Of a DNA stretch of 64,000 bases, positions 6,221 to 45,429 are shown in pieces. Made by a program: the position numbers and the translations under genes. Within the stretch, counting starts at the first letter, position 1. Every line of letters starts with the position of its first letter. Below the pieces are notes generated by a model that was not told where the DNA came from, ran no database searches, and saw only the letters and a program-made list of their open reading frames with translations. The stretch covers positions 1,104,674 through 1,168,673 of the forward strand of contig NZ_CBDDIO010000001.1 of assembly GCF_965229075.1 (NCBI RefSeq). The letters run 5' to 3'. This DNA comes from Ancylobacter sp. (GTDB taxonomy: Bacteria > Pseudomonadota > Alphaproteobacteria > Rhizobiales > Xanthobacteraceae).

Positions 6221-6239
6221 GTGTTACCCGGCGCGCGGC

Positions 6240-9496: not shown

Positions 9497-9520
9497 GGCC
9501 CGCATTCCTCCCGATACAGA

Positions 9521-9552: not shown

Positions 9553-9577
9553 GGGGCAGGTGGGCAACAGCCGCGAG

Positions 9578-9925
9578 CTATTGCAGCCTCTCGCTGCGCA
9601 CGCGCCAGCCGCCGTCACCATCGGCCGCCAGCATTTCCGGCAGCTGCGGGTGGCGCAGCGGTTCGCCCGTGGTGTCGAGTTCCAGATTCTGCTCCGAGAC
9701 ATAGGCGACGTATTCCGTCTCCGCGTTCTCGGCCAGCAGATGATAGAAGGGCTGGTCCTTGGTCGGGCGGATATGTTCGGGGATCGATTCCCACCACTCA
9801 TCGGTGTTGGAGAATTCCGGGTCCACGTCGAACACAACGCCCCGGAACGGGTAGTGCCTGTGCCGCACGACCTCGCCGATCCGGTATTTGGCGTTGCGCT
9901 CTTTCATCCTGGACCCGTCCGCCAT
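9578..9925 (-). CDS. hspQ: heat shock protein HspQ (hemimethylated DNA-binding, YccV family)
   Basis: KYRIGEVVRHRHYPFRGVVFDVDPEF...PFYHLLAEN is the YccV/HspQ domain. The ATG at 9925 (MADGSRMKERN) gives the usual ~115-aa size. Confidence 0.8.
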   Translation of the reverse strand: MADGSRMKERNAKYRIGEVVRHRHYPFRGVVFDVDPEFSNTDEWWESIPEHIRPTKDQPFYHLLAENAETEYVAYVSEQNLELDTTGEPLRHPQLPEMLAADGDGGWRVRSERLQ

Positions 9926-29923: not shown

Positions 29924-29947
29924 GGCGAAGCCTTTCGTGTCAGGCGG

Positions 29948-30229
29948 TCATTCCCCTTGGATCAACTCCTCCAGAATATCCCCGAACCACGCCTCGAAGA
30001 CAGCAATCTCCGCCTCTGTCACCGGAATGTATTCCGGCCAGTCGTCGGTGATGGTCAGGGGGGCGGAGGCTGGGGGCGACCGTGTCCGGCGGCGGGGCGG
30101 CGGCGTCTCCGCGTAGGTGTAGAGATTGTCGGGCAAGCGGCCGGTCGGGAGGCGGCGCGTGGAGTCGAAAGTGGGTGGACGCTCGTATCTGGTCATCCCA
30201 TAGATTGCGATGACAAGGGGCAAGGCCAC
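29948..30229 (-). CDS. small hypothetical protein upstream of the recombinase
   Basis: 93-aa ORF (or 82 aa from ATG 30196) on the same strand, 25 nt upstream of the recombinase. It has no clear RBS and no recognised motif. Confidence 0.3.
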   Translation of the reverse strand: MALPLVIAIYGMTRYERPPTFDSTRRLPTGRLPDNLYTYAETPPPRRRTRSPPASAPLTITDDWPEYIPVTEAEIAVFEAWFGDILEELIQGE

Positions 30230-30508
30230 ATAACCGCTCTGTATCCGGCGATACGCAGCGCTTCTAAGGCCTCTATGGAAGGCCCGAGATATTGCCCTTA
30301 CACTGCGAGGTTAAGAGTCTTGGGAGCCCTGATGGCACTTGAGGAGGCAGGACGTAGGGACTTTCGCTAACGGTCCGAGACCGATCGAACGGTGGTAATG
30401 CTGCCTTAGACAGTCTCTGAAGGGCTGCGTGATTAAGACTTCCGCTCCCCCCGTCATTTCGCCGCACTCGCCGGTGCGGTACCAAAATAGCGCGGCCCTA
30501 GCGGCGCA

Positions 30509-30537
30509 TTGAAACACCTAAGTGCAATAGCTAAATC
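30509..30537 (+). promoter_or_regulatory. candidate sigma70-type promoter for the nuclease-NTPase gene
   Basis: TTGAAA (30509-30514), a 17-nt spacer, then TAAATC (30532-30537), about 100 nt upstream of ATG 30635. Called by eye only. Confidence 0.3.
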
Positions 30538-30634
30538 ACTATCGTACCCAATCTTTTCCATCCTGGGTACGATTGACATTGCACCCCAATGGCCAGCATT
30601 TTTGCCCTACGTTTGTTTGGGGGTGATATCTGGA

Positions 30635-33136
30635 ATGGCCCATGGCGATGACGTTCTGGTGCGGCTGCGCGAAATAATCGATGACGTCAAAGACCGCTCT
30701 CTTAACGAAGCTGATACCCGGCACCGGGTAATCGACTTCGTTTTGCATGACGTTCTCGCGTGGCCGCGCAATCGAACGGCTGTGGAGGAGTATGTCGCCC
30801 CGGGTTATGCCGATTTCGTATTGAAGCGCGCAGATGGGGACCCACTGATTCTCGTAGAGGCCAAACGGGATGGCTCGTATTTCAATCTTCCAAATCCCGT
30901 GAACCAATCCGAAACGTCCGGATATATTTCTATAAAAAAGTTACTAACAGATAACAATATCAAATCTGCGATGCAGCAAGTTCGATTTTACTGTCAAGAT
31001 CTTGGCTGCGAATTCGCGGCCATAACCAATGGGCACGAATGGATATTTTTTAAAACGTTCGAGCGTGGAAAAAAATGGGAAACGTTGCAAGCTTTTGTAG
31101 CGCGAAGCGTGTCTTTCTTTGATATTGAATATACGCGCGCCTATAATTCATTTTCATATACAGCTATTTCAGAAAGCTTTTCACTTCAAACCGTCCTAAA
31201 TAGCTCTCCCCCGCGAGATAGGACAATCTACTACGCGAAAGATCGTATTCCCTCATATTCGCATCCAATTACGGCGAACAAATTAGCTTCTGCTCTACGA
31301 CCTATTGTTAATCATTATTTTGGTGTTATTGAGGATAGCGATACGGAATTTATGGATCGCTGCTATGTATCTCATAGAGACTATCATCATACATTTGATG
31401 GGATGAGGACTTTAATTGAAGACTCCCTTTCACCTTACTTGAAATCGTATGGTGTCCGGCCCTTAGACGAAACCGGAAAGGGCGGGCAACTTGGAGGGCG
31501 TCTGACTAAAAACATCAAACGAGGACGCAAGGGAGAGGTTCTCGTCCTGTTTGGTGGCAAGGGGGCCGGAAAGTCGACATTTATCAAGCGCCTCCTGCAC
31601 CACACGCCTCCGCGCTGGTTGCGCGACCACTCGGTGATTGCGATCGTCGACCTTCTTAAGGTGCCAGAAGAGCCCGAAGTAATTCGTCGAGCGATCTGGG
31701 ACGGGCTCGTCGCCGGCCTTGACACAGAAGGGCTCTTGGCCGCCGACCGAAGCGCTTTGCTGGACAAGCTTTTTACAGATCGCTTCGAGATTGCGTCGCG
31801 CCAGGAACTGTCAGGGCTTTCAAGGGCATCGGACGCGTACAATGCACGCCTTAATGAACTTGTTTCAGGCTGGAAAGCTGATAAAAAATATTGCGCCAAA
31901 CGTCTAATGAATTATTGGAAATGTCAAGACGTTGGACTTATAGTTGTAATCGATAATACTGATCAATATTCTGGCCCAAATCAGGATTTTTGTTTTACTT
32001 CGGCTCAAGAGATTGCTGACGAACTTGAATGCGTCACCTTAATCTCAATGAGAGAAGAGCGGTTTCATAATTCGAAAATCCATGGCCTGCTGGACGCGTT
32101 CCAGAACGCGGGCTTCCACATAAGCTCCCCGAAGCCCGCAGAGGTATTCCGAAAGCGACTGGAGTACGTTGTGTCACTCCTATCGAATTCATCGAGGAAC
32201 GAGGATCTGACAAATGGAGCTCCTGAGGAACTCGTCAATGACTGCATAAAATATCTGAGCATCATTAATCGGGATTTTCATAACGAAAAATCACCTTTGA
32301 ATAATTTTCTTACAGCGTGCGCTCACGGAGATATAAGACTATCTCTTGATCTTTTCAGAGCATTCCTTCTATCAGGGTACACCAATGTCGAAGAAATGCT
32401 CGCCGCTGGAAAATGGAACTTCCTGATACATCAGGTCATAAAACCTGTAATGATACCTACTAGGTATTATTATGACGAAATGTTAAGCGACATACCAAAT
32501 ATATATCAACTACGAGATAACCGCAGAAGTTCACATTTTACCTCAATGCGCATTCTTAGAAAACTCGCGCACAATGTGGAAAGCGGCGTGGCGACGTACC
32601 TATCAATGGCTGAACTGAAGTCGTACTTCTCAGAAACGTTCGCCATGATAGATGACTTCACAAAGAACGTTGATGTTTTGCTGAAACACGGATTCGTAGA
32701 GGCCGACAATCGGCTCGATGTATATTCGACAGATGTCGACCGCATAAAAATAACGGGATACGGCCTGTATATGATAAGTGAACTGGCTTACTCGTTCACG
32801 TATCTTGATCTTATCTGTACGGATTGCGGCGTCTATGACGAGCCTGTCAGTAATTATCTGGTTGAGGCTGCGAAATCTGAGTATGGACTATTTAATCAGA
32901 ATGAGAGATTTGAGCGTGTTAAGTTGCGCCTTGAGAGAGTTGATAGATTCCTGCAGTATCTTGAGAAGGAGGAACGCGAGGAGCGCACCTTTTTTGGATT
33001 GCGCTTTCCGGACGAAGAGCTTTTTACGTTCAAATGTCGTGAGGCATTTAAAGTTGAAAGTGCGCGTGTCGTTGCTAGCGCTACCAAAAATCGCGCAGTC
33101 AATCGACCGCGTAGTCGTCGCGCTCCTGGCCGCTGA
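30635..33136 (+). CDS. PD-(D/E)xK nuclease (HsdR-N/Mrr-like) fused to a P-loop (STAND-like) NTPase with a helical C-terminal domain
   Basis: The N-terminus reads NEADTRHRVIDFVL...YADFVL...LILVEAKRDG...FAAITNGHEWIFF, which is the HSDR_N-type D...ExK nuclease core (D codon 30812, E 30857, K 30863). Walker A is FGGKGAGKST (31553-31579), Walker B is LIVVIDNTDQ (31937-31966), followed by TLISMRE. About 330 aa of C-terminal helical region follow. I prefer ATG 30635 (GGGGGTGA upstream) over the ORF start at 30509. Confidence 0.7.
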   Translation: MAHGDDVLVRLREIIDDVKDRSLNEADTRHRVIDFVLHDVLAWPRNRTAVEEYVAPGYADFVLKRADGDPLILVEAKRDGSYFNLPNPVNQSETSGYISIKKLLTDNNIKSAMQQVRFYCQDLGCEFAAITNGHEWIFFKTFERGKKWETLQAFVARSVSFFDIEYTRAYNSFSYTAISESFSLQTVLNSSPPRDRTIYYAKDRIPSYSHPITANKLASALRPIVNHYFGVIEDSDTEFMDRCYVSHRDYHHTFDGMRTLIEDSLSPYLKSYGVRPLDETGKGGQLGGRLTKNIKRGRKGEVLVLFGGKGAGKSTFIKRLLHHTPPRWLRDHSVIAIVDLLKVPEEPEVIRRAIWDGLVAGLDTEGLLAADRSALLDKLFTDRFEIASRQELSGLSRASDAYNARLNELVSGWKADKKYCAKRLMNYWKCQDVGLIVVIDNTDQYSGPNQDFCFTSAQEIADELECVTLISMREERFHNSKIHGLLDAFQNAGFHISSPKPAEVFRKRLEYVVSLLSNSSRNEDLTNGAPEELVNDCIKYLSIINRDFHNEKSPLNNFLTACAHGDIRLSLDLFRAFLLSGYTNVEEMLAAGKWNFLIHQVIKPVMIPTRYYYDEMLSDIPNIYQLRDNRRSSHFTSMRILRKLAHNVESGVATYLSMAELKSYFSETFAMIDDFTKNVDVLLKHGFVEADNRLDVYSTDVDRIKITGYGLYMISELAYSFTYLDLICTDCGVYDEPVSNYLVEAAKSEYGLFNQNERFERVKLRLERVDRFLQYLEKEEREERTFFGLRFPDEELFTFKCREAFKVESARVVASATKNRAVNRPRSRRAPGR

Positions 33137-33252
33137 TTGTCGAAGCAGTTGCGCCAAAGTATGCTTAAGACTATGATGGCAAGAGCGTTGAGCGGAGCAG
33201 CCGTATTAGATATGGCGCCGGCGGTCCGACTTTTTGCAACGGCTGATTTTGA

Positions 33253-35313
33253 TTATAACCCCAGCCCTCGCGATCTTCCGAGATCCCACTCGATACCGCC
33301 ATCTCCACGCATGACACCGGAAAGGTGGCGGCCGATCTGCTTGTCGAGCACAGGCTGCCAGGGCACCAGCTGGAAGCCGAGCCCGTCTTCCAGCATGGCG
33401 AAGCGACCGGAGACGAGTTGTAGCTGGCGGGTGACAGTGCCGGAGACATATTCGCCGCGACCGGACGGCCGGTAAGTCAAGCCTGTGGACCTGGCGAGGT
33501 CGGCGGCGACGCGCTCCACCTCGCGGCGCTGAAGCCGGTTGAGGAGGTCGGGCGCCTCGATGCCACCGCCCGGCTGCCGCGTGGCGAGTCCCATGTCGAC
33601 GAGTGTGTTACGGCGCTGGTCGACGGCAAGGCTGACATCCAGGCCAAAGCCGTCGGTAGAGCGGGGCGTGGGTGAGATGATCTCCTGATCGAGCCAGGTG
33701 GCGCCCTCGACACCAATCTGCCGGTCGAGCGAGAGCTGCGAGGCGATCCGAATGTTGGGGCCTTCGCCCGCCAGCGCGCGGTCATAGGCGAGGCCGCGCT
33801 CGGGGAGGTTCTTCGGGATGGTCCAGTGCTCCGCATGAACCCGCTCGACATGACCGGCGCGCCGCAGTGCTTCCAGTCGCCGGACATGCGAGCGGATATA
33901 GGCCTCAGCGTCCTTGCCCTGTTCTGTGAAGCGGTCGCGGATGTGGGCGAGGTGCGTGCTCGGGCTATAAATGCCATCCGCGTCCGCGTTTTGTTGGATG
34001 TTCAGATCGACCGCGCGGGGCTGAGTGATCGGCGGCGTCACCTCGACGATCATGCCGCGCTGGAGACCTTCGAGCCTGGCGGCGTCCGGGAACTCGACAT
34101 GGTGGACGCGAGCGTCGATGCCATCGACCACGAGATAGGTAGTCTCGTTCAGGCCGTCTCCGGCCAGTCCCTTGCCCAGCACCCGGCCGGTGAGTGTCTG
34201 CTCCGGCGCGTGCCCATGGCGGACAAATTGGCTGGTGCCGCGCTCGTCGCCGAGGCCATTGTCTTCGATGGCCTGGTGCATGGAGCGGATGACGTCGTTG
34301 CGGGCTTCGATCTCGTTGAGAATCGCTTCCGTGCGTGGCGCGAGGATCCACTCGCCGGGGAGGTCCTCGGTGGCGAGGCCATAACCCTCCAGCTTGCGAA
34401 GCCGGCCGATGAGGAGGTTCTGGTTCTCCCGGATCAGCCGGTTGCCGCTGGTGAAGAGGTCGACGACGCCCTCGCGCTCCTGTTCCTGGATCAAGATACG
34501 ATCCAGCCGGGTAAGGCGCTCTGCCTCGACCTCGGAGGCGAGCTTCTGCTGCAGCTCCACCTCGCTCTGCGGGCCGAGTTCACGGGTGATGATGTCGCTG
34601 GCGCGGTGGCGTATCCCATGGGCGATGTAGTCGCCCGCTATGGTGAGGGTACGTCCCTCATCGGTGACGCCGCGCACCAGCACATGGGTGTGGGGATGGC
34701 CAGTGTTGTGATGATCGACCGCGATCCAGTCGAGCTTGGTACCGAGATCATTCTCCATCTGCCCCATGAGCTCACGCGTGAAGCCTCTGAGGTCGCCGAG
34801 CTCCAGCCCATCTTCCGGCGCGACGATGAAGCGGAACTGGTGGCGGTCCTCGCGTCCGCGCTCCAGGAAAGCTTTGCCATCGGCCACATCCTCGAACGCC
34901 GAATAGCAGCGACCCTTCTGCCGGTCGGGCGTCACACCGTCGCGCTGGAGATAGCGCAGATGGGCGTCGACCGCCTTGGCGGAAGTGCCGACCGTCTTGC
35001 GACCGCCGCGCCCCCGCACGACGCCGAGTTTCACCACCCGCGCCTTAACCACCACGCGGCGAGAGCGGTGTCGTCCACCGGCATCGACCTTCCAGCCGCG
35101 GTCAACACCGGAAAGCGCGCCCGCTGCCCGGACGCCGCGACCGCGGGCGTTGTAACGCCCGCTTCCTTTCCGGCCTGACCAGCCGCCGGCCTCGCGCGCG
35201 GCAATCTCGACCTGGCGCCGGAACGGTAGCGTCGCAAGGCTGCTCTGTCGCATGCCGCGCTGACGAATCCGGCCGGGGCGGACCCTGAACCTGTCGCTGT
35301 TGTCCTGTGCCAT
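33253..35313 (-). CDS. MOB relaxase / mobilization nuclease with DUF3363-like C-terminal domain
   Basis: It has an Arg-rich N-terminus, the relaxase His-triad motif WIAVDHHNTGHPHTHVLVRG, and a long C-terminal extension as in alphaproteobacterial relaxase/DUF3363 proteins. Confidence 0.8.
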   Translation of the reverse strand: MAQDNSDRFRVRPGRIRQRGMRQSSLATLPFRRQVEIAAREAGGWSGRKGSGRYNARGRGVRAAGALSGVDRGWKVDAGGRHRSRRVVVKARVVKLGVVRGRGGRKTVGTSAKAVDAHLRYLQRDGVTPDRQKGRCYSAFEDVADGKAFLERGREDRHQFRFIVAPEDGLELGDLRGFTRELMGQMENDLGTKLDWIAVDHHNTGHPHTHVLVRGVTDEGRTLTIAGDYIAHGIRHRASDIITRELGPQSEVELQQKLASEVEAERLTRLDRILIQEQEREGVVDLFTSGNRLIRENQNLLIGRLRKLEGYGLATEDLPGEWILAPRTEAILNEIEARNDVIRSMHQAIEDNGLGDERGTSQFVRHGHAPEQTLTGRVLGKGLAGDGLNETTYLVVDGIDARVHHVEFPDAARLEGLQRGMIVEVTPPITQPRAVDLNIQQNADADGIYSPSTHLAHIRDRFTEQGKDAEAYIRSHVRRLEALRRAGHVERVHAEHWTIPKNLPERGLAYDRALAGEGPNIRIASQLSLDRQIGVEGATWLDQEIISPTPRSTDGFGLDVSLAVDQRRNTLVDMGLATRQPGGGIEAPDLLNRLQRREVERVAADLARSTGLTYRPSGRGEYVSGTVTRQLQLVSGRFAMLEDGLGFQLVPWQPVLDKQIGRHLSGVMRGDGGIEWDLGRSRGLGL

Positions 35314-35549
35314 GCCGGCACGATGAGGGGCATCACCTTAGAGTATCAAGCGTAGAAAAGGCGAGTTCGCAAAGCAGCGTGAAAAGACCTGCCATGGCGG
35401 GCTAAGGGCGGAGCGCACATTGCGGTTTAGGTCAATCAACCCCAGTCCGATCAGAGCCTTAGATCAACCGACCGGCTTGCCAGCACCCTGCGATTCACGC
35501 TGGGCACCGTACCTCAACCTGCTGAAACCAATGTGCAGACAAACATATA

Positions 35550-35580
35550 ATGTCGCCAGACATTGCGATCGGCAGATCGC
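35550..35580. promoter_or_regulatory. tandem short hairpins in the AT-rich region upstream of the relaxase (candidate oriT or operator)
   Basis: ATGTC-gcca-GACAT (35550-35563) is followed immediately by GCGATC-ggca-GATCGC (35565-35580). They sit in a 650-bp non-coding, AT-richer stretch between the relaxase and RHH genes. Confidence 0.25.
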
Positions 35581-35970
35581 TTTATCTTGCCCTCAATTTC
35601 CTAAGCCTCACTGTCAATAATCTAATTCCGACAATACCCGCCGAATATACTAATAGGTAATGACCGAGAAGACCACGTTCTGGCCAGCGGGAGCCGCTGA
35701 TACGCTGCCGGCACCGAGGCTACCACGACCGCCGTCGGATGCGAGATCAGCGATGCAGTGGATTGACGGTCAAACGCCATTCAAGCGGCAGCCCAACCCG
35801 CGCCGAGGTCTGCACTGGTGATGCCAATGGATGTCCATCGCCGTGCAGAAACCTTGCAGAGAAACCGTCGTCGAACTGCACAGAGGTAGCGGCCTTTTGT
35901 GCACGCGAGCAGCAATGCTGGGAAGCATGAGGTGCTGGCGGTTGATCGTAGAAGTTCGCCGATCTCGGTA

Positions 35971-36159
35971 TCATTTGCCGCGCTTAGGCTCGGTAACCTC
36001 TTGCGATTTTTCGGCGACGGAGATGCCGCGACGCTCGGCATATTCGAGCAACGCAACTTCAATCAAAGCCGTAATGGATCGCCGCTCCGCGTCAGCAAGC
36101 TGGCGCGCCAGCGCGAGTACGTCAGCATCAATGCGGGTAGTGAAGGGCTGTTTCGTCAT
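35971..36159 (-). CDS. ribbon-helix-helix (CopG/Arc/MetJ-type) protein
   Basis: 62 aa from ATG 36159. MTKQPFTTRIDADVLALARQLADAERRSITALIEVALLEYAERR shows a beta-strand followed by two helices. It could be a relaxosome accessory protein or an antitoxin-type regulator. Confidence 0.65.
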   Translation of the reverse strand: MTKQPFTTRIDADVLALARQLADAERRSITALIEVALLEYAERRGISVAEKSQEVTEPKRGK

Positions 36160-36291
36160 CGGCCTTATTGCTTGCGATCCGGCATAGTTCGAGGCAGAGT
36201 CATGCACGTGCAGTGCACGTACAACGGCCGGGGTGAGTGCGCGAACACCCAACCCGGCCTGACCACAACCAAGCTGATTGGAGCTCGGATC

Positions 36292-36957
36292 ATGGCTGAT
36301 TCTGAGATTAGCACGAGTCTGTCCCGGCCATCCCGGAGGGGCGTTCTCTATGCCGTCCTGCTGACGATCGGCGGCACGTCATTCAACAGTTCGTCTGCGG
36401 CGACGCCGCAAGATGACAGCGCAACGGATGCCGCCGTCCTCGCGTGGAAAGGGTGGCGCGCCGCGCATAGGCGCACGCTTGCCCTGTGTCGGAAACAGCA
36501 ACGTCTGGAGTCCGAACTCGTGCGGAAGATCGGCTTTCCACAGGCGGTTCTGGCTGCAGCCGAACTACCGTCACCGGTGCGGATCGCCTCCTTGCGCCAG
36601 TTCGATGAGCTTGCGGGCAATGTTCCGTCGCTTTGCGCGCGGCGCGCCGAAGTCGCGGAGGCGCTGCGCGCACATCAGCAGCGCTGGGACGACGCAGATC
36701 GTGCCATCGGCTACTCCGTCACCCGGCAGGAAGAGGCGGCGGCATCCGCCGATGAAGAGCGCCTGATCGCGGGGCTTTTTGCGGCAAACGCGACGTCTCT
36801 GCGCGGCCTCTCCGCAAAGCTCGACGTGCTGATCGCCGTCGGCGCGGATGGCGCCGAGGGGCGGCATTTCCCGTGGCCCGAACTACGGCGCATCCGCCGG
36901 GATGTTACGCGCTTGATGCAGCTGCAGCGTCACGATGCAGTCGGCTTCACTGCTTGA
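36292..36957 (+). CDS. hypothetical protein with RR-containing leader
   Basis: 221 aa from ATG 36292. It has the N-terminus SRPSRRGVLYAVLLTIGG, then an Ala/Arg-rich helical sequence with no recognised domain. Its 3' end overlaps the convergent HNH gene by 11 nt. Confidence 0.4.
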   Translation: MADSEISTSLSRPSRRGVLYAVLLTIGGTSFNSSSAATPQDDSATDAAVLAWKGWRAAHRRTLALCRKQQRLESELVRKIGFPQAVLAAAELPSPVRIASLRQFDELAGNVPSLCARRAEVAEALRAHQQRWDDADRAIGYSVTRQEEAAASADEERLIAGLFAANATSLRGLSAKLDVLIAVGADGAEGRHFPWPELRRIRRDVTRLMQLQRHDAVGFTA

Positions 36958-37846
36958 AGCAGTGCTCGCGATGCCAGCGCAGGAAGTGGGGATGCGGACG
37001 CTCGAACGCCCGTTGCGGGGCAATTGCGCGCCCGCTCCGATTGATGAAGGCGCGCACGCCGTCGGGATCGTTGGCGTGCCGGGAGATCAGCACGTCGAGA
37101 TCGTCCGTCAGACTGATCAGCCCCCGGTCAAACATCCAGTGTGCCGTACCTGACAAAGCCAATCCATTGCTGACGATATCCGGACCGTTCGCCTGAACCG
37201 GCTGAATATGCGCCGCCGCGACCTCGGCCCGCCCGCCGCCATTGATGAGTTTCAAGCCACTGATGGCGCACCGCTCATCATAGGCGCGCAGCACGATGCG
37301 GCGGAAGACACGATCCCGCACCATCCGCGACGAAAGATAGCTGACGCGCTCCCTGCTCTCCTCGTACGCGAACGGAGCCTGTTCTTCGCTGAATCCGTTC
37401 GGACGCACATCGGTATCCGTGCGCGGAAGCAGCGGCTCGCGGTCATCGAGGCCTCGCGCGACGATGCGGTCGAAATCACCCGCGGAGAGCGGTCGAACCG
37501 CAGCCTGGGCACGGCCGGAAATCCGCCCATCTTCGTTCAGAACGCCACGCTCAATGACGCCACCATCACCGCCAAAGGGCACCGGGCTGACGAAGTCGAG
37601 ATAACTACCCGGCTCGATCAGCGCGAGAAACATGCCCGGCGCCGTCGGATCGGGAACAACGCGCTCCACCTTCGCGATGGCGAAGTAACCCCGCGTGTCC
37701 GCCACCTTCCGCGGCTCGTAATAGACGATCCAATCGCCAACGCAGGCCTCGACGCGGCCGAGATACTGCCGAGGGAACTGGTACCGCTCAGCCGGGCTAT
37801 CGTCATAGATCGAGTCTGTACGATGGATGAAAACGCCGAATCCCAT
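36947..37846 (-). CDS. HNH endonuclease (HNH_2-type) with an N-terminal PUA-like reader domain; likely modification-dependent restriction enzyme
   Basis: The C-terminus reads CAISGLKL......AAHIQPV...GPD.VSNGLALSGTAHWMFDRGLISL, an HNH_2 core. The N-terminal ~130 aa (GDWIVYYEPRK...RGYFAIAKVERVVPDP) looks like a small beta-barrel. Confidence 0.75.
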   Translation of the reverse strand: MGFGVFIHRTDSIYDDSPAERYQFPRQYLGRVEACVGDWIVYYEPRKVADTRGYFAIAKVERVVPDPTAPGMFLALIEPGSYLDFVSPVPFGGDGGVIERGVLNEDGRISGRAQAAVRPLSAGDFDRIVARGLDDREPLLPRTDTDVRPNGFSEEQAPFAYEESRERVSYLSSRMVRDRVFRRIVLRAYDERCAISGLKLINGGGRAEVAAAHIQPVQANGPDIVSNGLALSGTAHWMFDRGLISLTDDLDVLISRHANDPDGVRAFINRSGRAIAPQRAFERPHPHFLRWHREHCFKQ

Positions 37847-38283
37847 GACACGATCTTACCGCGCTATCCCGCGCTGGCGAGCGCGTAAGGAGCCGTTCGC
37901 TCCAGGAGACAGTACGCTGTGGCGAGGACGAATGCCCGGTTTGGGGCCGGTAGCCGACTGTCCGCTATTGGGGATCTCAAACGAGAAGCGGACATATCGC
38001 CAAATAATACCCGAGGCCGGAGCTGACCCTTTGCTGACATTGGGAGAGTCCGCTCTGCGTACATAAGCCTATCCTCAAGTGTAGTTTCAAGTTGTGGCTC
38101 CACCCCTCAAAACCCGCCTGCAGTCTTGAAAGTAACCTTAGTCTGGCTATCTCTGCTTCCACCTCAGTCCTGGCCGTTCGTAGTTCGGACAAGCGAGTTT
38201 GCAACAGCCTGAGCTGATCCGGCCACTTCTTGGTTTCGAAGGGAGTGTGGCGGCGACTGAAGTTGGATGGGCGTCGCGTGACG

Positions 38284-39441
38284 CTATCGGTTCCAATCGA
38301 CGGCGTTTAGCTGCCGGTACAGGGTTGCCCCGTAGTCCTTGTCTACCTGATGGGCGAAAGCGATTAGCCCCTCGATATGGCGCCGCATGCCAATGGTCGA
38401 GGCGAACCCCCGCTTCGCTCTGTGGGCGGCGGCGCCGACCTTCGGGTTCGCGAGCGCGAAAAGATGAGTTTCGACGTTGTTGCGGAACTCGCGCGTCAGC
38501 CTCGGCTGCTCCCGGTCGACCAGCACGCCGAGCAGAACCTTTCGGGCACCCGGCGGGACGATCGTCGTCTTTTCGCGATTGTTGATCAGCCCGAACTTCA
38601 CCAGCTCATGCTCCACCGCCTTCGCCAGATGCATTGCCTCTCCCCTGGCCGAGGCGTTGCGGCGGGAAAAGGCGAGATCGTCTGCGTACCGCGTGTAGGT
38701 CCAACCGCCCCGCGCTGCCAAGGCTTCGATGCGGCGATCCAGCGGCCACATAACGAGGTTCGCGAGCATTGGGCTCGTCGGAGCGCCCTGCGGCAGATGC
38801 CCTTGCCGATGTCGCCGGTATGGGAGACCCGTGTCCCCGCGCCCTTCCTGCAGCCTGACGTCACTGGTCTGATGTTGCGCCAGGCGCGTGCAGACACGCG
38901 CCATCTGGAATGAAAGCAACGCCCCGTAACCGAGCGACCGGAACACCCGATAAACCCGACGCTCGGGGATGGACTCGAAAAAGTGGCGGACATCCATCTT
39001 CACCAACCACTTCGCTTCGACATGCCGCTTCGCTGCACCGACCAAGTCGCGACCAGGCGCGAACGCGTAGCTTGCGGGGTGCGGCGGGACGGCGTTCAGG
39101 ATGTTCTGTGCGATCCAGCGCTGCGCCCGCATGAGGTCCTGGTGGGGCACGCATATCGTCCGGTAGCGCCGTGGTGGCGCCGCCACGCCGTTGGGCGTAC
39201 CGCGCTTCTTCACCCGGAACACGCGGTATGAGTCCTCCTTGCGGAAGGCGACGGCCTGCAAGGCCTCGATCGGTACTCCGGCCAAATGTGCGAGGTGTCC
39301 TAGGGTCAGGATAACTGGAAGGTCGGGATTGGTCCGCTTGATCGCGTCTGCAGCGGCTTCGGCGGCGGCGATCAGACCCTCGCTTCGCCCTTCAGCGCGC
39401 GCCCCCTCGCGGAACCGTTGAGAACTCCACGGGTGCTTCAT
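38284..39441 (-). CDS. reverse transcriptase, retron-type
   Basis: It has the RT motifs LPQGAPTSPMLANL and WTYTRYADDLAFS (YADD codons at 38677-38688). It also has YRVFRVKKRG...RYRTICVPHQDLMRAQRWI and GLINNREKT...ARKVLLGVLV, which are collinear with retron RTs such as Ec86. Confidence 0.8.
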   Translation of the reverse strand: MKHPWSSQRFREGARAEGRSEGLIAAAEAAADAIKRTNPDLPVILTLGHLAHLAGVPIEALQAVAFRKEDSYRVFRVKKRGTPNGVAAPPRRYRTICVPHQDLMRAQRWIAQNILNAVPPHPASYAFAPGRDLVGAAKRHVEAKWLVKMDVRHFFESIPERRVYRVFRSLGYGALLSFQMARVCTRLAQHQTSDVRLQEGRGDTGLPYRRHRQGHLPQGAPTSPMLANLVMWPLDRRIEALAARGGWTYTRYADDLAFSRRNASARGEAMHLAKAVEHELVKFGLINNREKTTIVPPGARKVLLGVLVDREQPRLTREFRNNVETHLFALANPKVGAAAHRAKRGFASTIGMRRHIEGLIAFAHQVDKDYGATLYRQLNAVDWNR

Positions 39442-39607
39442 CTACTTGAGTCCAGCCCTGGTGGGCGTCGCTTCCACCATCGAACCGAGCCCCCGAGGAG
39501 GTTCCCGATAGGGAACGATGGCGGAAGCGACGTGGACCTGCGATCAGCAGCTCTAACAGTGGCGACCGGAAGCCCGGTCCCCCTCGACAATGAGTTCGTA
39601 CCCATCA
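39442..39607 (-). ncRNA. candidate retron msr-msd non-coding RNA (structured spacer upstream of the RT)
   Basis: On the minus-strand transcript there is a short hairpin GACCGG-GCUU-CCGGUC (39579-39564). It is followed by a 17-bp stem (39532-39516 pairing with 39482-39466) that encloses a GUUCCC-UAUC-GGGAAC hairpin. The single non-Watson-Crick pair is G-U only in the minus-strand sense. I did not identify a1/a2 repeats or the branching G. Confidence 0.35.
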
Positions 39608-40894
39608 TCACGGCCGCCCAAAAGGACGGCGGGTGCTAGACGAAGCCCGCGGAGTTCTCAGTTCGGACGGATAATATGGAACGGTAGAGGTTGCAATACT
39701 CGGCCGTTTTCGCTCAAGCCGCCGCGCAGCTTCCAGCATTTGATGCCCGGCGTCTGTGAGGCGCCCTTGTTTGGTGATCAACTTTGCGCGCAGCGCTCTC
39801 AGCACGATCTCCATCACGTCCGGCGTGGTCATTCCGGTCCGCTCAGAGAGCGCGATTTCCTTTCCGCGCCACCAGCGTCCACGCATGGCGGACAAGACGA
39901 GAACCGTCGCAGCATCCGCCTCAGCCAACCCCGGCGTGATCCGAATGCCCATGCTGGCCGCCGCGGAGGTGATGACGTCGCTCATCCGACGGAGGCCGAA
40001 TGCCGGGCGCAGGTCGTCGGGCGCCGGCCCGTCGTAGAGCGCGCGCCAGGTGCTAGTCGACTTATGGAGCAGCGCCGGCGTGTTATTGGGGAGGCGGTAG
40101 TTGAATGCCGCCAGGGCGGAGGTGTTTCCGAAGCCCCACCGGCTCGCACCGCGTCCCGTATCCGGGCCGTAGCGGTTAATCAGTGAAAACCAGCGGTCCG
40201 CTTGGCGCCAGTCGCCTGCCTTTACGATGGTCGGTGCGACGTGCTCGACACGCACATCCGGCCGCAGGCGGTGGCGCCGAACGCTCGTGATGCCGGCGTC
40301 TGTCCCTGCCGCGGCCACAACGCAAAAATCAATCCATCCTCGGGAGCGCCACGCACGGATGGTGGGGACCGCCCACAAGGCGTCGAGCATCGACCTCACC
40401 CGGCTGCCGGATCCGATGAAGTCCGTGACCAGCGCTATAGTCCCTGCGGGCGCGGTCTTGCCGCGCAGCAGGTTGGGCCCTGGGTGGTTCATAAAGATGG
40501 CCGGCCGCGCCTCCTTAGCCTGAGAGATGACAAAGCCGACGAGGCCCTCGCTGCCGACCCGCGTCCCGCCACGAAGGGGTTTGACTGCCGGAGGTCCAGC
40601 CCGACCAACGGCGCGGTAATGGCGTCGGCCCTTCGCATCTAAAGTTACGGTGCTCTGGAAGAAGGCTGCTTGCCCCATCTCGCGCTCGGCGTAGAGCGCG
40701 ACCCGACGTCGGAAACCGGAGCGACCGTCCGCCAGCGCGTAGAGTTGAGAGCGGATCGCTGCGCTGACCTGCTCTTCGTTTAGCAAGAGCATGGCGTCCA
40801 GCAACGCCGCAGCGTCGACCGCGTCGGCCGCCAGGAACTGCCGTAGCCATTGCTGCGACGTCTCGTAAGACGACAGCGGCGCTCGCGAGCTCAA
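39608..40894 (-). CDS. phosphoribosyltransferase-like protein with C-terminal winged-helix domain
   Basis: It has a PRPP-loop-like motif GTIALVTDFIGSGSRVRSMLDAL and a C-terminal wHTH-like segment MTTPDVMEIVLRALRAKLITKQGRLTDAGHQMLE. The preferred start is TTG 40894 (AAGGGA 7 nt upstream), which overlaps the helicase TGA. An alternative ATG is at 40792. Confidence 0.5.
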   Translation of the reverse strand: MSSRAPLSSYETSQQWLRQFLAADAVDAAALLDAMLLLNEEQVSAAIRSQLYALADGRSGFRRRVALYAEREMGQAAFFQSTVTLDAKGRRHYRAVGRAGPPAVKPLRGGTRVGSEGLVGFVISQAKEARPAIFMNHPGPNLLRGKTAPAGTIALVTDFIGSGSRVRSMLDALWAVPTIRAWRSRGWIDFCVVAAAGTDAGITSVRRHRLRPDVRVEHVAPTIVKAGDWRQADRWFSLINRYGPDTGRGASRWGFGNTSALAAFNYRLPNNTPALLHKSTSTWRALYDGPAPDDLRPAFGLRRMSDVITSAAASMGIRITPGLAEADAATVLVLSAMRGRWWRGKEIALSERTGMTTPDVMEIVLRALRAKLITKQGRLTDAGHQMLEAARRLERKRPSIATSTVPYYPSELRTPRASSSTRRPFGRP

Positions 40895-42642
40895 ATGGCA
40901 ATCCCTTCTACGATAGCTTCGCCGAACCACGCCTGGACCTTGCCCATCGCCACGGGCGAAAGCTGCTGGGTGAACAGCAGCGCCAACCGCTTCTTCGGCC
41001 TGGAGCACGCCACGTAGAAGAGATTGCGGTTGCGCTCGAACATCTCTGCGCGGGCCGCCGGCACGCCATTGACCGCCAGCTCCAGCATCTCCCCAAAATT
41101 GTACTGGTTCCACCCGCGTCCGATCACGACGAGCACATTCTCAAATTCCTGTCCCTTGACCCCGTGCTTCGTCTCGAACGGCGAGTGTCCGCAGAGATAG
41201 GCGCGAAGGGCTTTGATCTCGGCATACTGCACGCCATGCAGGGCCTCTGTCTCCGTTAGGTAGCGCGGCATGGGTTCGCCAGCGTCCGGATCAAAGGCGC
41301 GCAGGTCGCGCTCACGGTCTGCGACGGCATCGGGGGGCCGCGGGCGCCGGGTCTGCATCAGGTGACCGATAACCTCCCCGACGGTCCCGTTGGCCCTCAG
41401 CTGATCCAGCGCCTGAAAGGACGCCCCCCACGCCGCCTTGTCCGCCGTTCGACGCAGGTGCGGGGCGGTGCCCAGGACATCGAACATCTCGCCAAACCGC
41501 CGGGCCGCAAATGCATCGCAAGCGGGCTCCAGCACATCGACCAGGTAGGCGATGTGTGGATTCTCCTTCTTGGTGAAGGCGTCATTGAACTGGAAGACGC
41601 CTGGGAGGCTGGCGTAGCCCTGCTCAGCCGCCAACACCCGGTGGGTCAGCATCAGGACCTTGGTCCGGCTGGCGTCGAAGTCCCAACCATCCGCGACCAG
41701 CCGGGTTTTGACCCGGTCCAACGCCTGGTGAGCCACGGGCCCAGGCAGATCGCCACCCCAGTGGGCGCCGCCCTGTCGCTGTCCCACCCAACCGTTGGAA
41801 TGGAACACCCTGACCGAACCAGCCACAGTCGGATCGTCCACGAACTGCGGCAGCTCGGGTCGCATCCGGTTCAAGCAATCCACTACGACCTGCACAGACC
41901 GGAAATTGGCCTCCTTGCCGATCTCCTTGACCGCGGGATGTTCAAGCTTCCCGCATCCACCGTAGATTTTCTGCCAGTGGTCGCCGAAGAAGCCAAACTG
42001 CGGCGCGCCCGCCACGCCGAGGAAGTGGGCCTTGATCGCCTCCACCCAATCGGCGTCAGTATCCTGATACTCGTCGACCAGAATGACCGGATAGAGTTCC
42101 GACATCCGCTTCCGGAACTTGGCGTTCTCCATGAAGCGGATGGTCAGTGGCAGGATGTCGTCGTGGTGCAGGGACAGAACCCCGTCCCTGATGGACCGAT
42201 GGCCAAGGGTATACTCCACCGTGCGACCACCGATGCCGCCGACTTCGGCCAGACGGTCCTGCCATGTCGGGAGTTCGCTGACATAGGTGCGCAGATGCGC
42301 CTGCAGACCGTTGATTAGCGACCAACAGAACGCGTGATTGGTCTCGCAAAACACCGCCGGGTGGCGGTCGGTTCGCGCCTCGATCTCATCCTTGGCCACG
42401 TTGGTGAAGGTGATGCAGGCAACCTTCTGACTGCGGCGAACGAAAACCCGGCTCCGCTTCTCGATCAGCCAACCCAGCGCTTTCACGAGCGTGTAGGTCT
42501 TACCGGCGCCGGCGCCGGCTTCCAGTCTGAAGCTCTCGCCGTTTTCCAAACAGCCATAGACGGCTTCAAGGGCGACGCGGCTTGCCCTCTGTGCAGGAGT
42601 CTCGCCATCAGGCACCGGTCTGCTCCTCAGCCGTTGCCTCAT
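40891..42642 (-). CDS. UvrD/PcrA-like SF1 helicase (GajB-like)
   Basis: It has Walker A EAGAGAGKTYTL, motif II ILVDEYQDTD, then VKGQEFENVLVV and NLFYVACSRPKKRLALL. Its start overlaps the end of the OLD gene by 35 nt. Confidence 0.85.
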   Translation of the reverse strand: MRQRLRSRPVPDGETPAQRASRVALEAVYGCLENGESFRLEAGAGAGKTYTLVKALGWLIEKRSRVFVRRSQKVACITFTNVAKDEIEARTDRHPAVFCETNHAFCWSLINGLQAHLRTYVSELPTWQDRLAEVGGIGGRTVEYTLGHRSIRDGVLSLHHDDILPLTIRFMENAKFRKRMSELYPVILVDEYQDTDADWVEAIKAHFLGVAGAPQFGFFGDHWQKIYGGCGKLEHPAVKEIGKEANFRSVQVVVDCLNRMRPELPQFVDDPTVAGSVRVFHSNGWVGQRQGGAHWGGDLPGPVAHQALDRVKTRLVADGWDFDASRTKVLMLTHRVLAAEQGYASLPGVFQFNDAFTKKENPHIAYLVDVLEPACDAFAARRFGEMFDVLGTAPHLRRTADKAAWGASFQALDQLRANGTVGEVIGHLMQTRRPRPPDAVADRERDLRAFDPDAGEPMPRYLTETEALHGVQYAEIKALRAYLCGHSPFETKHGVKGQEFENVLVVIGRGWNQYNFGEMLELAVNGVPAARAEMFERNRNLFYVACSRPKKRLALLFTQQLSPVAMGKVQAWFGEAIVEGIAI

Positions 42643-44677
42643 CGACCGCCGCCATTACGACGGCCAATGCCTGGTCTGGCACAATGGCGTCGCTCGCCGC
42701 CAACCATCGAATGCCCTCCACGAGGTATCGAGGTGCCGTCCAGTTCGTGTCGGCGATCGAGAATTCGATGGCAAAGTCGGACTTCTTATAGCCGCCAGCC
42801 AGCGTCCTGGCTTCGAGTTCGCGGGCCGGGGCGTCGGCGCCCACCAAGCCGAACTTTTCGCCGTTGGCCAAGATAAACGCATCTTCAAGTGTGCGTCCAC
42901 AGGGGCCGTTGGCGGCCTCGGGACATTGGTAAGCCAGACGTTTCAGGCCTTTAATCTTGTCGACGTCGGTCTTACCGGCGAAGCCGGCCAGGGGATAAGG
43001 CGCGTCGCCAGCGAACCAGGATTTCAAGCACACATTGCTGGTGGTCACGCCCTGGTGCACCGCGCAGGCGGTGCCGCCTGCCGCGACCACGGCGTCGAGG
43101 TCGGTGACGATCAAGGTCCGCAATTCTAGGAAGTCCAGGAGATCCACGAAGATGTGGGCGTAGGCGCCGCCGACCTCCAGAGTGGTGATGAACTGGCTCG
43201 ACAGTTTCGGCGCCTCCGGCTCCATAGCCTCCAGCTTGCTGACCACCACTGGTAGGATCATCCGTTCGCCGAGACCTTCGACCAGTATCGCCTTGTCCGC
43301 GAAGAATAGGTCGCAACGGGTCAGCGTCAGATATTTGTGTAGGAATTGGCGGTCGGGCGCGGGCTTGTCGGCCATGCCCTTGCTTAGGTCCTTGACGCGG
43401 GTCATCCGGACGCCCGGAGCCGCACCTGGCGTGTCGACCGACAGGAAGTACCTGATGGCCTCGAACCCTGCCTCGTTCGCGACATGCGACGAGTGGGTGG
43501 AGACCACGAATTGCACTGGCCACGGGATGCCGTCCTCGGCGCCCTGGACCAACTGCTGGGCGATCTTCGCAAGCTGACGAATGAAGACCTCCTGCATCTG
43601 GGGATGCAAGTGGGCCTCCGGCTCCTCTATGAAGATCAGGTGTACTCCAGCCGCGGTCGAGTCCGCCCGGAAGGATTTGTAGAAACCGACCAGTTGCAGG
43701 AGGATGAAGATCAGGTTCCTGATCCCCAGCCCGTTGTAGGACTCGGGAAGGGAAACTCCGCTGTTGCCAGCGTAGCGAACGCGCGTGAAGTTGGACAGCA
43801 GGCGCCGGACGTCCAGCGTCGTTTCCGTGTGCAGTTCCTGTCCGCCAAGACCGGGGTATCCGAAGCTCTGCAAGGTCGGCATCAGCTTCTTCAGTTCGGA
43901 GCCGACGTTGGCGTCGATCTGCTGCTGAATGTCCTGTACCGCGGCTCCCAGGGCATCGGCCACAAGCTTGTCGCCGTGGTCAGCCTGATCCGAACTCGCG
44001 GTGGAGAACAGGTTCTCCAGAACCTTAGCCAGCACGTCGGACTCGCGAGACGTCACGTCGTCGAGGCCGCGTTGGGCGTTGATGAAGCCCGGTTTCACGA
44101 GATGGCGCAGCGCGGCGTTCGTCAGCTCGCGACGGTTAGCCGGGTCGGTGGGGTCTTGCGCCCAGATCTTCGCTGTGAACATCTTCGGCACGCGTTCGCG
44201 CAAAACCTTGAAGACCGCTATGCGGGCTGCGTCGTCCAACTCTCCGGCGGGCTGATCAGCGAAGAAGGCGGCGACGGCGCCATCCTTCAACTCGTAGCGA
44301 ATGGCTGCTATCGCAGTGGTGCACGCTGGGTCGAGGTCGATGACGAATGGGCTGAGCGGCCCCAGCTCCGGGTCGGCCGCGTCGTATTCAAAATGGACAT
44401 CTAGTTCGATCGACGGAAGCAATGCGCGAACGGCTTGGTCTCCAGCCCCGTCACCATGCGCTCTCAGGGACGCGCAAAACCCATCGTAGCTCGCGCTCGA
44501 GAAGTCCTCGATCTGGAAGATGGGCGTACCCTCGCCGAGCAAGCGCCGCATGATTTCCGACAGAGAGGTCTTGCCGCTGTTGTTGCGTCCCACGATCAGG
44601 GTGGTTTTGGGATCGAGCGCAAGGGTGACGTCAGCAAGCAGCCGGAAGTTTTTGATCCTGACCTGGCTAATGTGCAC
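42608..44677 (-). CDS. OLD-family ATP-dependent endonuclease (ABC-type ATPase + Toprim; GajA-like)
   Basis: It has Walker A GRNNSGKTS, Walker B/D-loop LIFIEEPEAHLHPQ, a Toprim Glu in AILVEGLGERMILP and the DxD in LIVTDLDAV. The GTG start at 44677 is preceded by GAGGGGA. Confidence 0.85.
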   Translation of the reverse strand: MHISQVRIKNFRLLADVTLALDPKTTLIVGRNNSGKTSLSEIMRRLLGEGTPIFQIEDFSSASYDGFCASLRAHGDGAGDQAVRALLPSIELDVHFEYDAADPELGPLSPFVIDLDPACTTAIAAIRYELKDGAVAAFFADQPAGELDDAARIAVFKVLRERVPKMFTAKIWAQDPTDPANRRELTNAALRHLVKPGFINAQRGLDDVTSRESDVLAKVLENLFSTASSDQADHGDKLVADALGAAVQDIQQQIDANVGSELKKLMPTLQSFGYPGLGGQELHTETTLDVRRLLSNFTRVRYAGNSGVSLPESYNGLGIRNLIFILLQLVGFYKSFRADSTAAGVHLIFIEEPEAHLHPQMQEVFIRQLAKIAQQLVQGAEDGIPWPVQFVVSTHSSHVANEAGFEAIRYFLSVDTPGAAPGVRMTRVKDLSKGMADKPAPDRQFLHKYLTLTRCDLFFADKAILVEGLGERMILPVVVSKLEAMEPEAPKLSSQFITTLEVGGAYAHIFVDLLDFLELRTLIVTDLDAVVAAGGTACAVHQGVTTSNVCLKSWFAGDAPYPLAGFAGKTDVDKIKGLKRLAYQCPEAANGPCGRTLEDAFILANGEKFGLVGADAPARELEARTLAGGYKKSDFAIEFSIADTNWTAPRYLVEGIRWLAASDAIVPDQALAVVMAAVDEATAEEQTGA

Positions 44678-44715
44678 GGCGTCCCCTCTAAGCAGCGGAC
44701 GTCTCTGCGTCCTAT

Positions 44716-44731
44716 TAGTGTGCCGACACTA
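44716..44731. promoter_or_regulatory. perfect 6-4-6 palindrome upstream of the OLD gene (candidate operator)
   Basis: TAGTGT-gccg-ACACTA lies 39-54 nt upstream of the GTG start of the first gene of the cluster. Confidence 0.3.
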
Positions 44732-45397
44732 CCTGAAAGAGTGCTGTGGTGCAGCTTGCGTCTCGGGGGAAATTCAACGATCACGTTCCGGCCACAGCAC
44801 GACCTTCGCCGATACCGGCATCGGGCCGCTGCAGCGTGGCGTTAGCAGCCTGTAGTTCTCGCGCGAGTGCCACCGGCTGTTCGGCTGCGGCATCCCATTC
44901 ACGAGCCCCTCTTGGCCTGGTCGGCCGGGTCAGACGGCCGCTGTAGAGTTACGGATGGTCGGCGTCGATGTGTGTCGCGAAGACGTGATCAAACCGGTCG
45001 GCGAAAATCTCTTGGACGACGCGTCGCGCGGGACGGCGCGAATAACGATTTTTTGCAGGTCACGACGGGCGGCGCAGGGATTGGCTCAACGTCCGCATTC
45101 TGCCCCTAAGCCAATGTCTTTTCATGGCGCAACCATGACCTCCAAGGCGGAAAGAACCCACGTCTGCTCTCAGGAATCTGCAAATCCGATTTCTACGGCC
45201 GAGATGGCGGCGCAAAGCGGATATCCCTGAAAGGCGGCGAGGGACAGGGACGGGCCAATGCGCGTCATAGGGTTATAGCGAACACATAGTTCTCTTCTTG
45301 GTCGCTCGCGGCCCGCCACTTTCACCCCGCCCGCCTTCAACCCTGGCACAATGCTGCGCCTCGTCGGACGGGCCGGTCCTGCCATTCTCGCAAACAG

Positions 45398-45429
45398 AAA
45401 GCCCGGAACCGTCTCCGGTACCGGGCTTT
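45398..45429 (-). terminator. rho-independent terminator downstream of minE
   Basis: AAAGCCCGG...CCGGGCTTT stem with T-rich runs on both strands, 54 nt downstream of the minE stop. Confidence 0.6.

Follow-up and report, generated by a model that had tools for sequence, protein, structure and literature searches.

Contig NZ_CBDDIO010000001.1 of Ancylobacter sp. (Alphaproteobacteria, Xanthobacteraceae) carries a 6.4-kb cluster of four minus-strand genes in which a Gabija anti-phage system runs directly into a type III-A3 retron. It was analyzed within a window of 64,000 nucleotides (positions 1,104,674 to 1,168,673 of the contig, forward strand), and coordinates given without a locus name refer to this window. 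The parts are known; the recurrent and sometimes operon-fused arrangement of Gabija with a III-A3 retron is new. We put at about 0.65 the probability that two autonomous anti-phage systems have been fused here and are kept together by selection, a reading that we favour because either half is found, and lasts, where the other is missing. The link between Gabija and the retron is best read as evolutionary and regulatory rather than structural.

The gene cluster and its retron RNA

The minus strand carries four open reading frames (ORFs), 42608..44677, 40891..42642, 39608..41113 (with an in-frame TTG at 40894) and 38284..39441. They are the four tightly spaced genes that an earlier, sequence-only reading of the window had reported, and the motifs that it quoted are all present in the translations. 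With the starts assigned as discussed below, the features of the cluster are as follows, in order of transcription. The abbreviations are PRTase, phosphoribosyltransferase; wHTH, winged helix-turn-helix; RT, reverse transcriptase; ncRNA, non-coding RNA; SF1, superfamily 1; aa, amino acids.

42608..44677, minus strand: gajA, OLD-family ABC-ATPase/Toprim nuclease (689 aa; Pfam and PADLOC profiles)
40891..42615, minus strand: gajB, UvrD-like SF1 helicase (574 aa from GTG 42615; 583 aa from the alternative ATG 42642)
40891..40894, minus strand: TTGA junction of the gajB stop and the PRTase start, the TTG sharing bases with the TGA
39608..40894, minus strand: retron effector, N-terminal PRTase-like domain and C-terminal wHTH (428 aa)
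39418..39661, minus strand: retron ncRNA, msr-msd (inverted repeats, fold and covariation)
38284..39441, minus strand: retron RT with YADD catalytic motif (385 aa; PADLOC RT_III-A, Pfam RVT_1)

The first two genes form the Gabija half. GajA matches Pfam AAA_15 (2.3e-51) and OLD-like_TOPRIM (7.6e-14), and its residues 1-670 align with positions 1-670 of the 679 in the PADLOC GajA model PDLC00063 (E=6.4e-275). The catalytic motifs are present in the translation as Walker A GRNNSGKTS, Toprim E ILVEGLGER and DxD LIVTDLDA. GajB matches Pfam UvrD-helicase (2.7e-18) and AAA_19 and the PADLOC GajB model PDLC00113 (1.1e-250), and its helicase motifs I and II read AGAGAGKTYTL and ILVDEYQDT. By every Gabija feature that can be judged from sequence, the predicted OLD/UvrD pair is a Gabija system. 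In a plain sequence search the window GajA lies nearer to the class-1 OLD nuclease of Thermus scotoductus (6p74, E=1.1e-16) than to the solved GajA of Bacillus cereus, which it matches in the Toprim region only (E=3.5e-6), so what the B. cereus structures have taught about Gabija may be a poor guide to this subfamily.

The third and fourth genes, with the RNA between them, form the retron. The effector matches Pfam PRTase-CE (7e-12) and wHTH-PRTase_assc (2.8e-16) and PADLOC PRTase_III-A (2.1e-100). It contains a phosphoribosyl pyrophosphate (PRPP) loop, LVTDFIGSGSRV / IALVTDFIGSGSRV, the G-x14-PNNxP motif as G...YRLPNNTP and a C-terminal YYPSELRTP; a search of solved structures returned no relative of this protein. 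The RT matches PADLOC RT_III-A (PDLC02944, 1.4e-166) and Pfam RVT_1 (6e-22), with YTRYADDLAFS in the translation, and its nearest solved structure is the Ec86 RT (1.5e-36), as the sequence-only reading had surmised. The Pfam and PADLOC profiles bear out all four gene identities proposed there (OLD, UvrD, PRTase/wHTH and retron RT), and profiles and ncRNA together agree with its framing of the cluster as Gabija plus a type III (PRTase/wHTH) retron.

Both upstream junctions are overlaps. The most likely start of gajB is GTG 42615 and not ATG 42642, because the GTG is preceded by a GAGGAG Shine-Dalgarno sequence, because the upstream ATG is absent from the 96% identical copy in Xanthobacter versatilis (locus L028), which is called from the GTG, and because GajB homologues span 575-579 aa. 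From this start gajB overlaps the gajA stop by 8 nt (GTGCCTGA), so that the overlap proposed earlier stands while its extent of 35 nt most likely does not. The TTG start of the PRTase gene overlapping the helicase stop, also proposed earlier, is upheld: the TTGA is present in the sequence, the gene caller gave the same overlap in three related loci (L028, L029 and L067), and residue 3 of the protein aligns at position 3 of the PADLOC model, which supports the TTG. The TTGA overlap suggests translational coupling of gajB and the PRTase gene. A consensus scan found no terminator-like site at either the gajA/gajB or the gajB/PRTase junction, and over 37.8-45.5 kb terminator-like sites are no more numerous than in shuffled sequence. 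Since the junctions overlap and no terminator-like site lies at them, co-transcription is the simplest reading, and the four genes are probably transcribed together from a gajA promoter and coupled in translation through the GTGCCTGA and TTGA overlaps.

Between the PRTase and RT genes lie 166 nt that had been taken for a structured spacer. The structure is there, and it is more than a spacer: by inverted repeats, fold and covariation this region is the middle of a predicted retron msr-msd ncRNA of ~244 nt whose ends lie inside the two genes. The region is flanked by a 15-nt inverted repeat (39646-39660 / 39419-39433) that extends into both of them, a 17-bp hairpin pairs 39466-39482 with 39516-39532, and the region folds better than shuffled sequence (z = -5.2). 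When the equivalent region from 35 related loci was aligned and folded with RNAalifold, the consensus comprised five helices, the a1/a2 stem, three msr hairpins and the msd stem, with compensatory changes in 33 of the 43 pairs. With the structure held fixed, 94.1% of cells pair, compared with 39-49% when the partners are slid by 1-3 columns, and none of 500 shuffles attains the observed values. The elements of the RNA in the window, all on the minus strand, are:

39649-39661: a1, inside the 3′ end of the PRTase gene
39646-39648: unpaired GGG directly after a1, candidate for the branching G by analogy only
39616-39627, 39585-39610 and 39561-39582: three msr hairpins (consensus structure)
39520-39530 and 39468-39478: stems of the long msd hairpin (consensus structure)
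39418-39430: a2, inside the 5′ end of the RT gene

An Rfam gathering scan of the whole window returned tRNA-Ser only, and no retron msr family.

This anatomy is that of Retron-Eco11, a type III-A3 retron (cluster 67_3) in which the ncRNA overlaps the effector 3′ and RT 5′ ends and has three msr hairpins and a long msd, and in which the effector carries a PRPP loop, a G-x14-PNNxP motif and a C-terminal YYPxxLRxx peptide (PMC12746101). Compared with this published description, the window retron has the same order of effector, ncRNA and RT on one strand, a1/a2 repeats inside both genes, a PRTase-wHTH fusion with common motifs and an RT related to clade-9 RTs such as that of Ec86. Unlike Eco11, its PRTase has 13 extra residues past the conserved C-terminal peptide, and the retron, fused downstream of gajB, lacks a separate intergenic region. 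The only enterobacterial III-A relative retrieved (L033) is ~25% identical to the window in the PRTase and 37% in the RT. Judged by anatomy and motifs, the retron belongs to type III-A3 on every point that its sequence can speak to. A type I-B (Eco8-like) retron was considered because of the OLD protein and rejected; the RT matches that of Eco8 only at 1.9e-6, and no I-B RT model is among the best 25 of its 77 PADLOC matches. As a I-B effector the OLD protein itself was likewise rejected, since its best matches are GajA models and it is partnered with a UvrD helicase.

Gabija beside related retrons

How often does such a retron have a Gabija neighbour? Retron relatives were collected from one genome per species (27 loci), from metagenome contigs (33 loci), by exact-protein look-ups and from plasmid matches, and the four window proteins, together with all Gabija proteins encountered, were mapped onto the collected loci. 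The nearest relative of all four genes is that of X. versatilis (L028), where the layout is identical and the cluster lies downstream of a trb-type type IV secretion system (T4SS); identity to the window is 95% for the PRTase, 97% for the RT, 97% for GajA and 96% for GajB. Within the core clade (PRTase at least 45% identical) a complete GajA+GajB pair lies within ~1 kb of the retron in 9 of the 25 loci with adequate flanks, and of 30 related retron loci left after dereplication, 10 have a pair at a distance of no more than about 1 kb. For these 30 loci we also took a census of neighbours, clustering by all-against-all phmmer the 288 proteins of at least 150 aa encoded no more than 6.5 kb from the retron. 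GajA-like and GajB-like proteins each occur in 10 loci, and every other neighbour family in four at most.

These frequencies can be set against the abundance of Gabija, which is reported from a little over 15% of genomes (PMC10781630). The flanks examined total 0.85 Mb and contain 13 Gabija, where random placement would, on a rough estimate, give far fewer than one. On this sequence comparison the adjacency of Gabija and retron is not chance.

The partners are diverse. PADLOC profiles confirm each adjacent pair as GajA/GajB, but the best-matching subfamilies differ. The pairs, here called types A to G, are listed with their position relative to the retron:

Type A (window, L028): upstream, co-directional, overlapping; GajB PDLC00113, GajA PDLC00063
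Type B (L004, L023, L076/77): upstream, co-directional, short gap (6 nt in L076); GajB PDLC00135, GajA PDLC00063
Type C (L029): upstream, divergent; GajB PDLC00104, GajA PDLC00086
Type D (L006): downstream, co-directional; GajB PDLC00147, GajA PDLC00096
Type E (L014, L015, L041): downstream, convergent; GajB PDLC00147, GajA PDLC00099
Type F (L008, L011, L040): downstream, convergent; GajB PDLC00147, GajA by tblastn only
Type G (L062): downstream, convergent; GajB PDLC04173, GajA PDLC04168

Overall, the best models of the adjacent GajB proteins are PDLC00113, 00135, 00104, 00147/00105 and 04173. Four layouts are found (upstream co-directional, upstream divergent, downstream co-directional and downstream convergent), the Gabija-linked retrons split into four clades in a neighbour-joining tree of PRTase plus RT, and the adjacent pairs fall into about seven mutually divergent lineages with ~25-40% identity. 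Operon fusion or tight coupling occurs with two of the types, A and B. In the same position these are 31-33% identical (31% between the GajB proteins of the window and of L004) despite retrons that are 64% (PRTase) and 74% (RT) identical between the same two loci, while many homologues of type A Gabija from other proteobacteria are 63-70% identical to it. Thus the type A and type B partners are not orthologous, and it follows that the arrangement was built, or the partner swapped, more than once.

The association belongs to this retron clade and is not general to III-A retrons, since the plasmid collection contains only distant relatives (at most 35% identity) and just one of the eight examined, L032, has a Gabija nearby; there an E-like pair lies upstream and divergent. 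An enterobacterial III-A retron (on a Shigella plasmid) occurs in 1 of 5426 E. coli genomes, too rare to test for Gabija adjacency.

Some of these loci have further neighbours. In the clade III loci L008 and L011 our ORF calls place a common 212-aa ORF (cluster c23) between the RT and the convergent gajB. Upstream of the L006 retron, 6521-9655 on the plus strand encodes a 1044-aa protein with a ThsA/SIR2-like N-terminus (PADLOC ThsA, 1.1e-13), and near the L080 retron there are a second RVT_1 protein and a TIR_2 protein (1777-3087 and 6360-7745). The defence-like neighbours of L006 and L080 recur in no other locus.

Separable halves and competing explanations

Each half is found without the other. 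Gabija is absent from 20 of the 30 dereplicated retron loci, and many Gabija-free retrons have an upstream region of their own of 150-600 nt or a divergent upstream gene, so that the retron is normally an independent transcription unit. On the Gabija side, 3474 of the candidates scored are homologous to the window GajB at E <= 1e-20; identity to it ranges over 63-94% in the 120 listed, with P. aeruginosa, Burkholderia, Cupriavidus and Mesorhizobium among the names at 63-70%. There is no retron at any of the three type-A Gabija loci checked, in Agrobacterium (L069), in Mesorhizobium (L070) and in L071, a contig from a Logan assembly on which one protein bears the name of P. aeruginosa. Two of these three stand-alone loci adjoin Hachiman-like (HamA) or type ISP/MmeI-like restriction-modification genes.

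Partial losses are found in both directions. The retron of L029 is 91-94% identical to that of the window (PRTase 91%), and a 60-aa ORF directly upstream of its PRTase gene (8246-8428) is the C-terminal remnant of a type-A GajB. Of gajB, only ~190 bp at the 3′ end are left (57 aa at 65-70% identity, E=5e-19), with a homology breakpoint in the DNA alignment. About 850 bp away, at 3905-7572, stands a different and intact Gabija in divergent orientation (GajA PDLC00086, GajB PDLC00104), and an unannotated 184-aa ORF with no Pfam match (7695-8249) lies between the two. The converse is seen in L067 and L068, where type-A gajA and gajB are kept (GajB 94% identical to that of the window), the retron is deleted and thiG/thiS follow; a 107-aa ORF behind the Gabija pair (9725-10048 in L067, 3940-4263 in L068) is a truncated and rearranged 5′ remnant of the PRTase gene, 88% identical over its first 57 aa. 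The L007 retron is otherwise without Gabija, but ~5 kb upstream of it lies an isolated N-terminal fragment of a type-D GajA (4488-4681, minus strand; 62% identity to the L006 GajA over 42 aa), which may represent one more partner in decay. In several loci small co-directional ORFs of 84-113 aa immediately precede the PRTase gene. They were considered as gajB remnants and rejected; tblastn with GajB tails found a gajB remnant only in L029.

An obligate machine of four genes is therefore unsupported, because each half survives without the other in L029, in L067 and L068, in the Gabija-free retrons and in stand-alone Gabija. The two halves neither co-occur consistently in both directions nor share orthologous partners, and we reject the obligate composite. 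The sequence-only reading had left a choice between a pair of known systems standing back to back within a defence island and a single composite of all four genes. The two known systems hold up and the composite that needs all four does not, although 'back to back' understates a junction of overlapping codons and a series of recurrent, non-orthologous Gabija partners. Its proposal that the RT/msDNA and PRTase half senses infection for the OLD/UvrD pair, or licenses it, may or may not hold.

How might the fused systems work? The Gabija half would attack invading DNA, as its characterized relatives do. Published work describes GajA as a nicking endonuclease whose binding to DNA is inhibited by nucleoside triphosphates (NTPs), and GajB as a sensor of DNA termini that hydrolyses (d)ATP and (d)GTP (PMC8136825, 10.1101/2023.05.02.539174). 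In P. aeruginosa, Gabija targets ends of linear DNA that lack RecBCD, and blocks the circularization of linear DNA when phage end-binding proteins keep RecBCD away from its ends (PMC12407980). In the retron half, the RT would copy the msd part of the ncRNA into multicopy single-stranded DNA (msDNA); RT, msDNA and PRTase-wHTH would form a complex as they do in Eco11. Phage recombination helicases acting on that complex would switch on the PRTase, so depleting PRPP and aborting the infection; in Eco11 it is the catalytic activity of UvsW and D10 that triggers the effector, with PRPP depletion and abortive infection (PMC12746101). A promoter at gajA would give a single transcript with coupled translation, and both systems would move together. 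The two would sense different parts of the phage, protected DNA ends on the one hand and branch-migration helicases on the other, and a double escape may be costly for the phage. The retron clade has gained or kept a neighbouring Gabija repeatedly, in different lineages and orientations, and this argues for a fitness benefit of carrying both systems, either layered defence or mutual escape-proofing.

Several points weigh against the view of two autonomous systems held together by selection. The main weakness concerns the background rate of Gabija on these particular mobile elements: several of the loci stand on related plasmids or integrative and conjugative elements (ICEs) with VirB4, VirB11 and relaxase clusters, and common backbones could inflate the association. 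Among more distant III-A retrons Gabija is nearby in 1 of 13, so that the association is confined to one retron clade. Co-transcription has as its sole grounds the gene overlaps and the absence of a terminator-like site; a promoter consensus scan of 37.8-45.5 kb gave no promoter-like site, even upstream of gajA, and is uninformative, also as to a retron promoter inside gajB. Finally, for each of the four proteins the activity is extrapolated from homologues of distant sequence.

The strongest competing explanation is that the two halves are functionally integrated, the output of one being the input of the other. This could take three forms. By depleting PRPP, the retron might lower the nucleotide pools, lifting the NTP inhibition of GajA and so licensing the nuclease. 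Alternatively the retron might guard Gabija, as retron Ec48 guards RecBCD, with an anti-Gabija factor of the phage or the failure of Gabija exposing or remodelling the msDNA complex and leading to abortive infection. Or GajB might act on the msDNA as UvsW and D10 act on Eco11, so that activation of Gabija fires the PRTase. The recurrence of the pairing across ~seven divergent Gabija lineages, four layouts and four retron clades would fit such integration, as would the tight operon fusion that arose with both of the non-orthologous types A and B, and L029, in which a deleted type-A Gabija has a different intact Gabija 850 bp away. The published PRPP depletion and helicase trigger of Eco11, NTP inhibition of GajA and (d)ATP/(d)GTP hydrolysis by GajB make a nucleotide link plausible. 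Against this, two thirds of the related retrons have no Gabija nearby, and the Gabija relatives checked have no retron. The variable orientation and the spacers of 1-3 kb in clades II-IV speak against a fixed stoichiometric complex, and at ~25-40% identity the Gabija partners are too divergent to offer one conserved interface to a conserved retron. Eco11 was not triggered by the host helicase RecG (PMC12746101). We consider functional integration unlikely. The same doubt applies to its fuller statement, that alphaproteobacterial III-A3 retrons and Gabija constitute a selected two-layer partnership with mechanistic cross-talk, whether licensing or guard and backup, of which the window operon would be the tightest form.

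An accident of defence-island and ICE cargo dynamics, in which Gabija is common on these elements and the fusion has no selective meaning, is the least probable explanation and a remote one, even though the cluster lies on a mobile island with a recombinase, a relaxase and probable further defence genes (the HNH_2 protein and low-GC ATPase described below), related loci stand on T4SS, relaxase or ArdC backbones, stand-alone type-A Gabija adjoins other defence genes, and both halves decay independently: no other neighbour family, of defence or ICE type, is in more than four of 30 loci compared with 10 for Gabija, a single inherited accident cannot explain non-orthologous partners on either side of the retron, and exact operon fusion has occurred with two different Gabija types.

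Related systems, the island and significance

Two autonomous systems held together by selection would differ from the known cases that they most resemble. The Gabija systems of B. cereus VD045 and P. aeruginosa PA14 share with the window two overlapping genes, intact motifs and full-length PADLOC matches, and GajB homologues at ~69% identity to the window include one named as P. aeruginosa. The window GajA is, however, very distant from the solved one of B. cereus, and the window gajAB is continued directly by retron genes with no gap. Gabija is reportedly abortive in B. cereus, and non-abortive and end-targeting in PA14.

Retron-Eco7/Ec78 (type I-A) also joins an ATPase-nuclease system that can stand alone, the Septu-like PtuAB, to an RT and ncRNA, and is the nearest precedent for such a union. 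In type I-A, PtuAB is the only effector of the retron and co-evolves with the RT (PMC7736814); the window retron in contrast comes with a PRTase as effector, next to which Gabija is a neighbour that can be dispensed with or exchanged. Retron-Eco8 (type I-B2) likewise has an OLD-family protein encoded beside the RT, but its RT is of another clade, the OLD-like protein is its single effector, and it has neither a UvrD helicase nor a PRTase. Retron-Eco6/Ec48 guards RecBCD (Millman et al. 2020, as summarised in PMC12746101) and provides a conceptual model of a second line that fires when a first-line complex processing DNA ends is subverted, except that RecBCD is encoded elsewhere and not beside the retron. 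Open-access full-text searches found no report of a pairing of Gabija with a III-A retron, which is not proof of absence, and a systematic study of retron neighbourhoods mentions neither Gabija nor UvrD.

The cluster lies on an island of ~17 kb for which we propose the following limits and contents:

28226..45418: island carrying the cluster, from tRNA-Ser to the minE terminator (boundaries inferred)
28232-28321, plus strand: tRNA-Ser (Rfam scan)
28226..29923, minus strand: large serine recombinase (Resolvase/Recombinase/Zn_ribbon_recom)
30509..33136, plus strand: low-GC ATPase ORF (875 aa; weak Pfam matches)
33253..35313, minus strand: relaxase (DUF3363/MobA-type, Relaxase)
35971..36252: small ribbon-helix-helix protein
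36947..37846, minus strand: HNH_2 protein (299 aa; C-terminal HNH_2, Pfam 2.8e-08; PADLOC 'HNH' PDLC04132, 4.7e-20)
45418-45403: minE terminator-like hairpin, followed by minCDE

The whole looks like an integrated mobilizable element with defence cargo. Compared with ~0.68-0.72 in the flanks, GC content drops to 0.44-0.55 at 30-33 kb and is 0.61-0.66 from there to 45 kb, and the recombinase ORF, taken from its longest listed start, abuts and slightly overlaps the tRNA-Ser. The boundaries are only inferred, because a search of the window for an att-type direct repeat that would match the 3′ end of the tRNA-Ser gave nothing. The 875-aa ORF has weak, sub-threshold Pfam matches to AAA_16/AAA_22 and to HSDR_N, the nuclease-like N-terminus of type I restriction proteins; it may be a separately acquired defence gene on the same island. 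The HNH_2 protein, encoded 437 nt downstream of the RT, is not a conserved neighbour of the retron elsewhere. Probably it is a restriction-like gene in its own right, and the island would then combine several defence systems.

Retrons and Gabija have each been studied well in isolation, but the ways in which defence systems cooperate are an open question, and most documented synergies come from statistics of co-occurrence across E. coli genomes. In the present case one particular retron clade has a lasting Gabija neighbour although the partner has been replaced repeatedly, and twice, independently, the two have become fused in an operon. Annotation in the style of DefenseFinder or PADLOC would probably list two unrelated systems and overlook their linkage. 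The 6.4-kb cassette is a concrete and cheap test case for synergy, guarding and cross-talk through the nucleotide pool. If a mechanistic link were true, a retron that senses helicases and depletes PRPP would be tied to an NTP-gated nuclease, a new logic of layered immunity. If there is co-selection only, the pair would still be a clean example of escape-proofing, because the machinery with which the phage recombines and replicates would be sensed by the two systems at different points.

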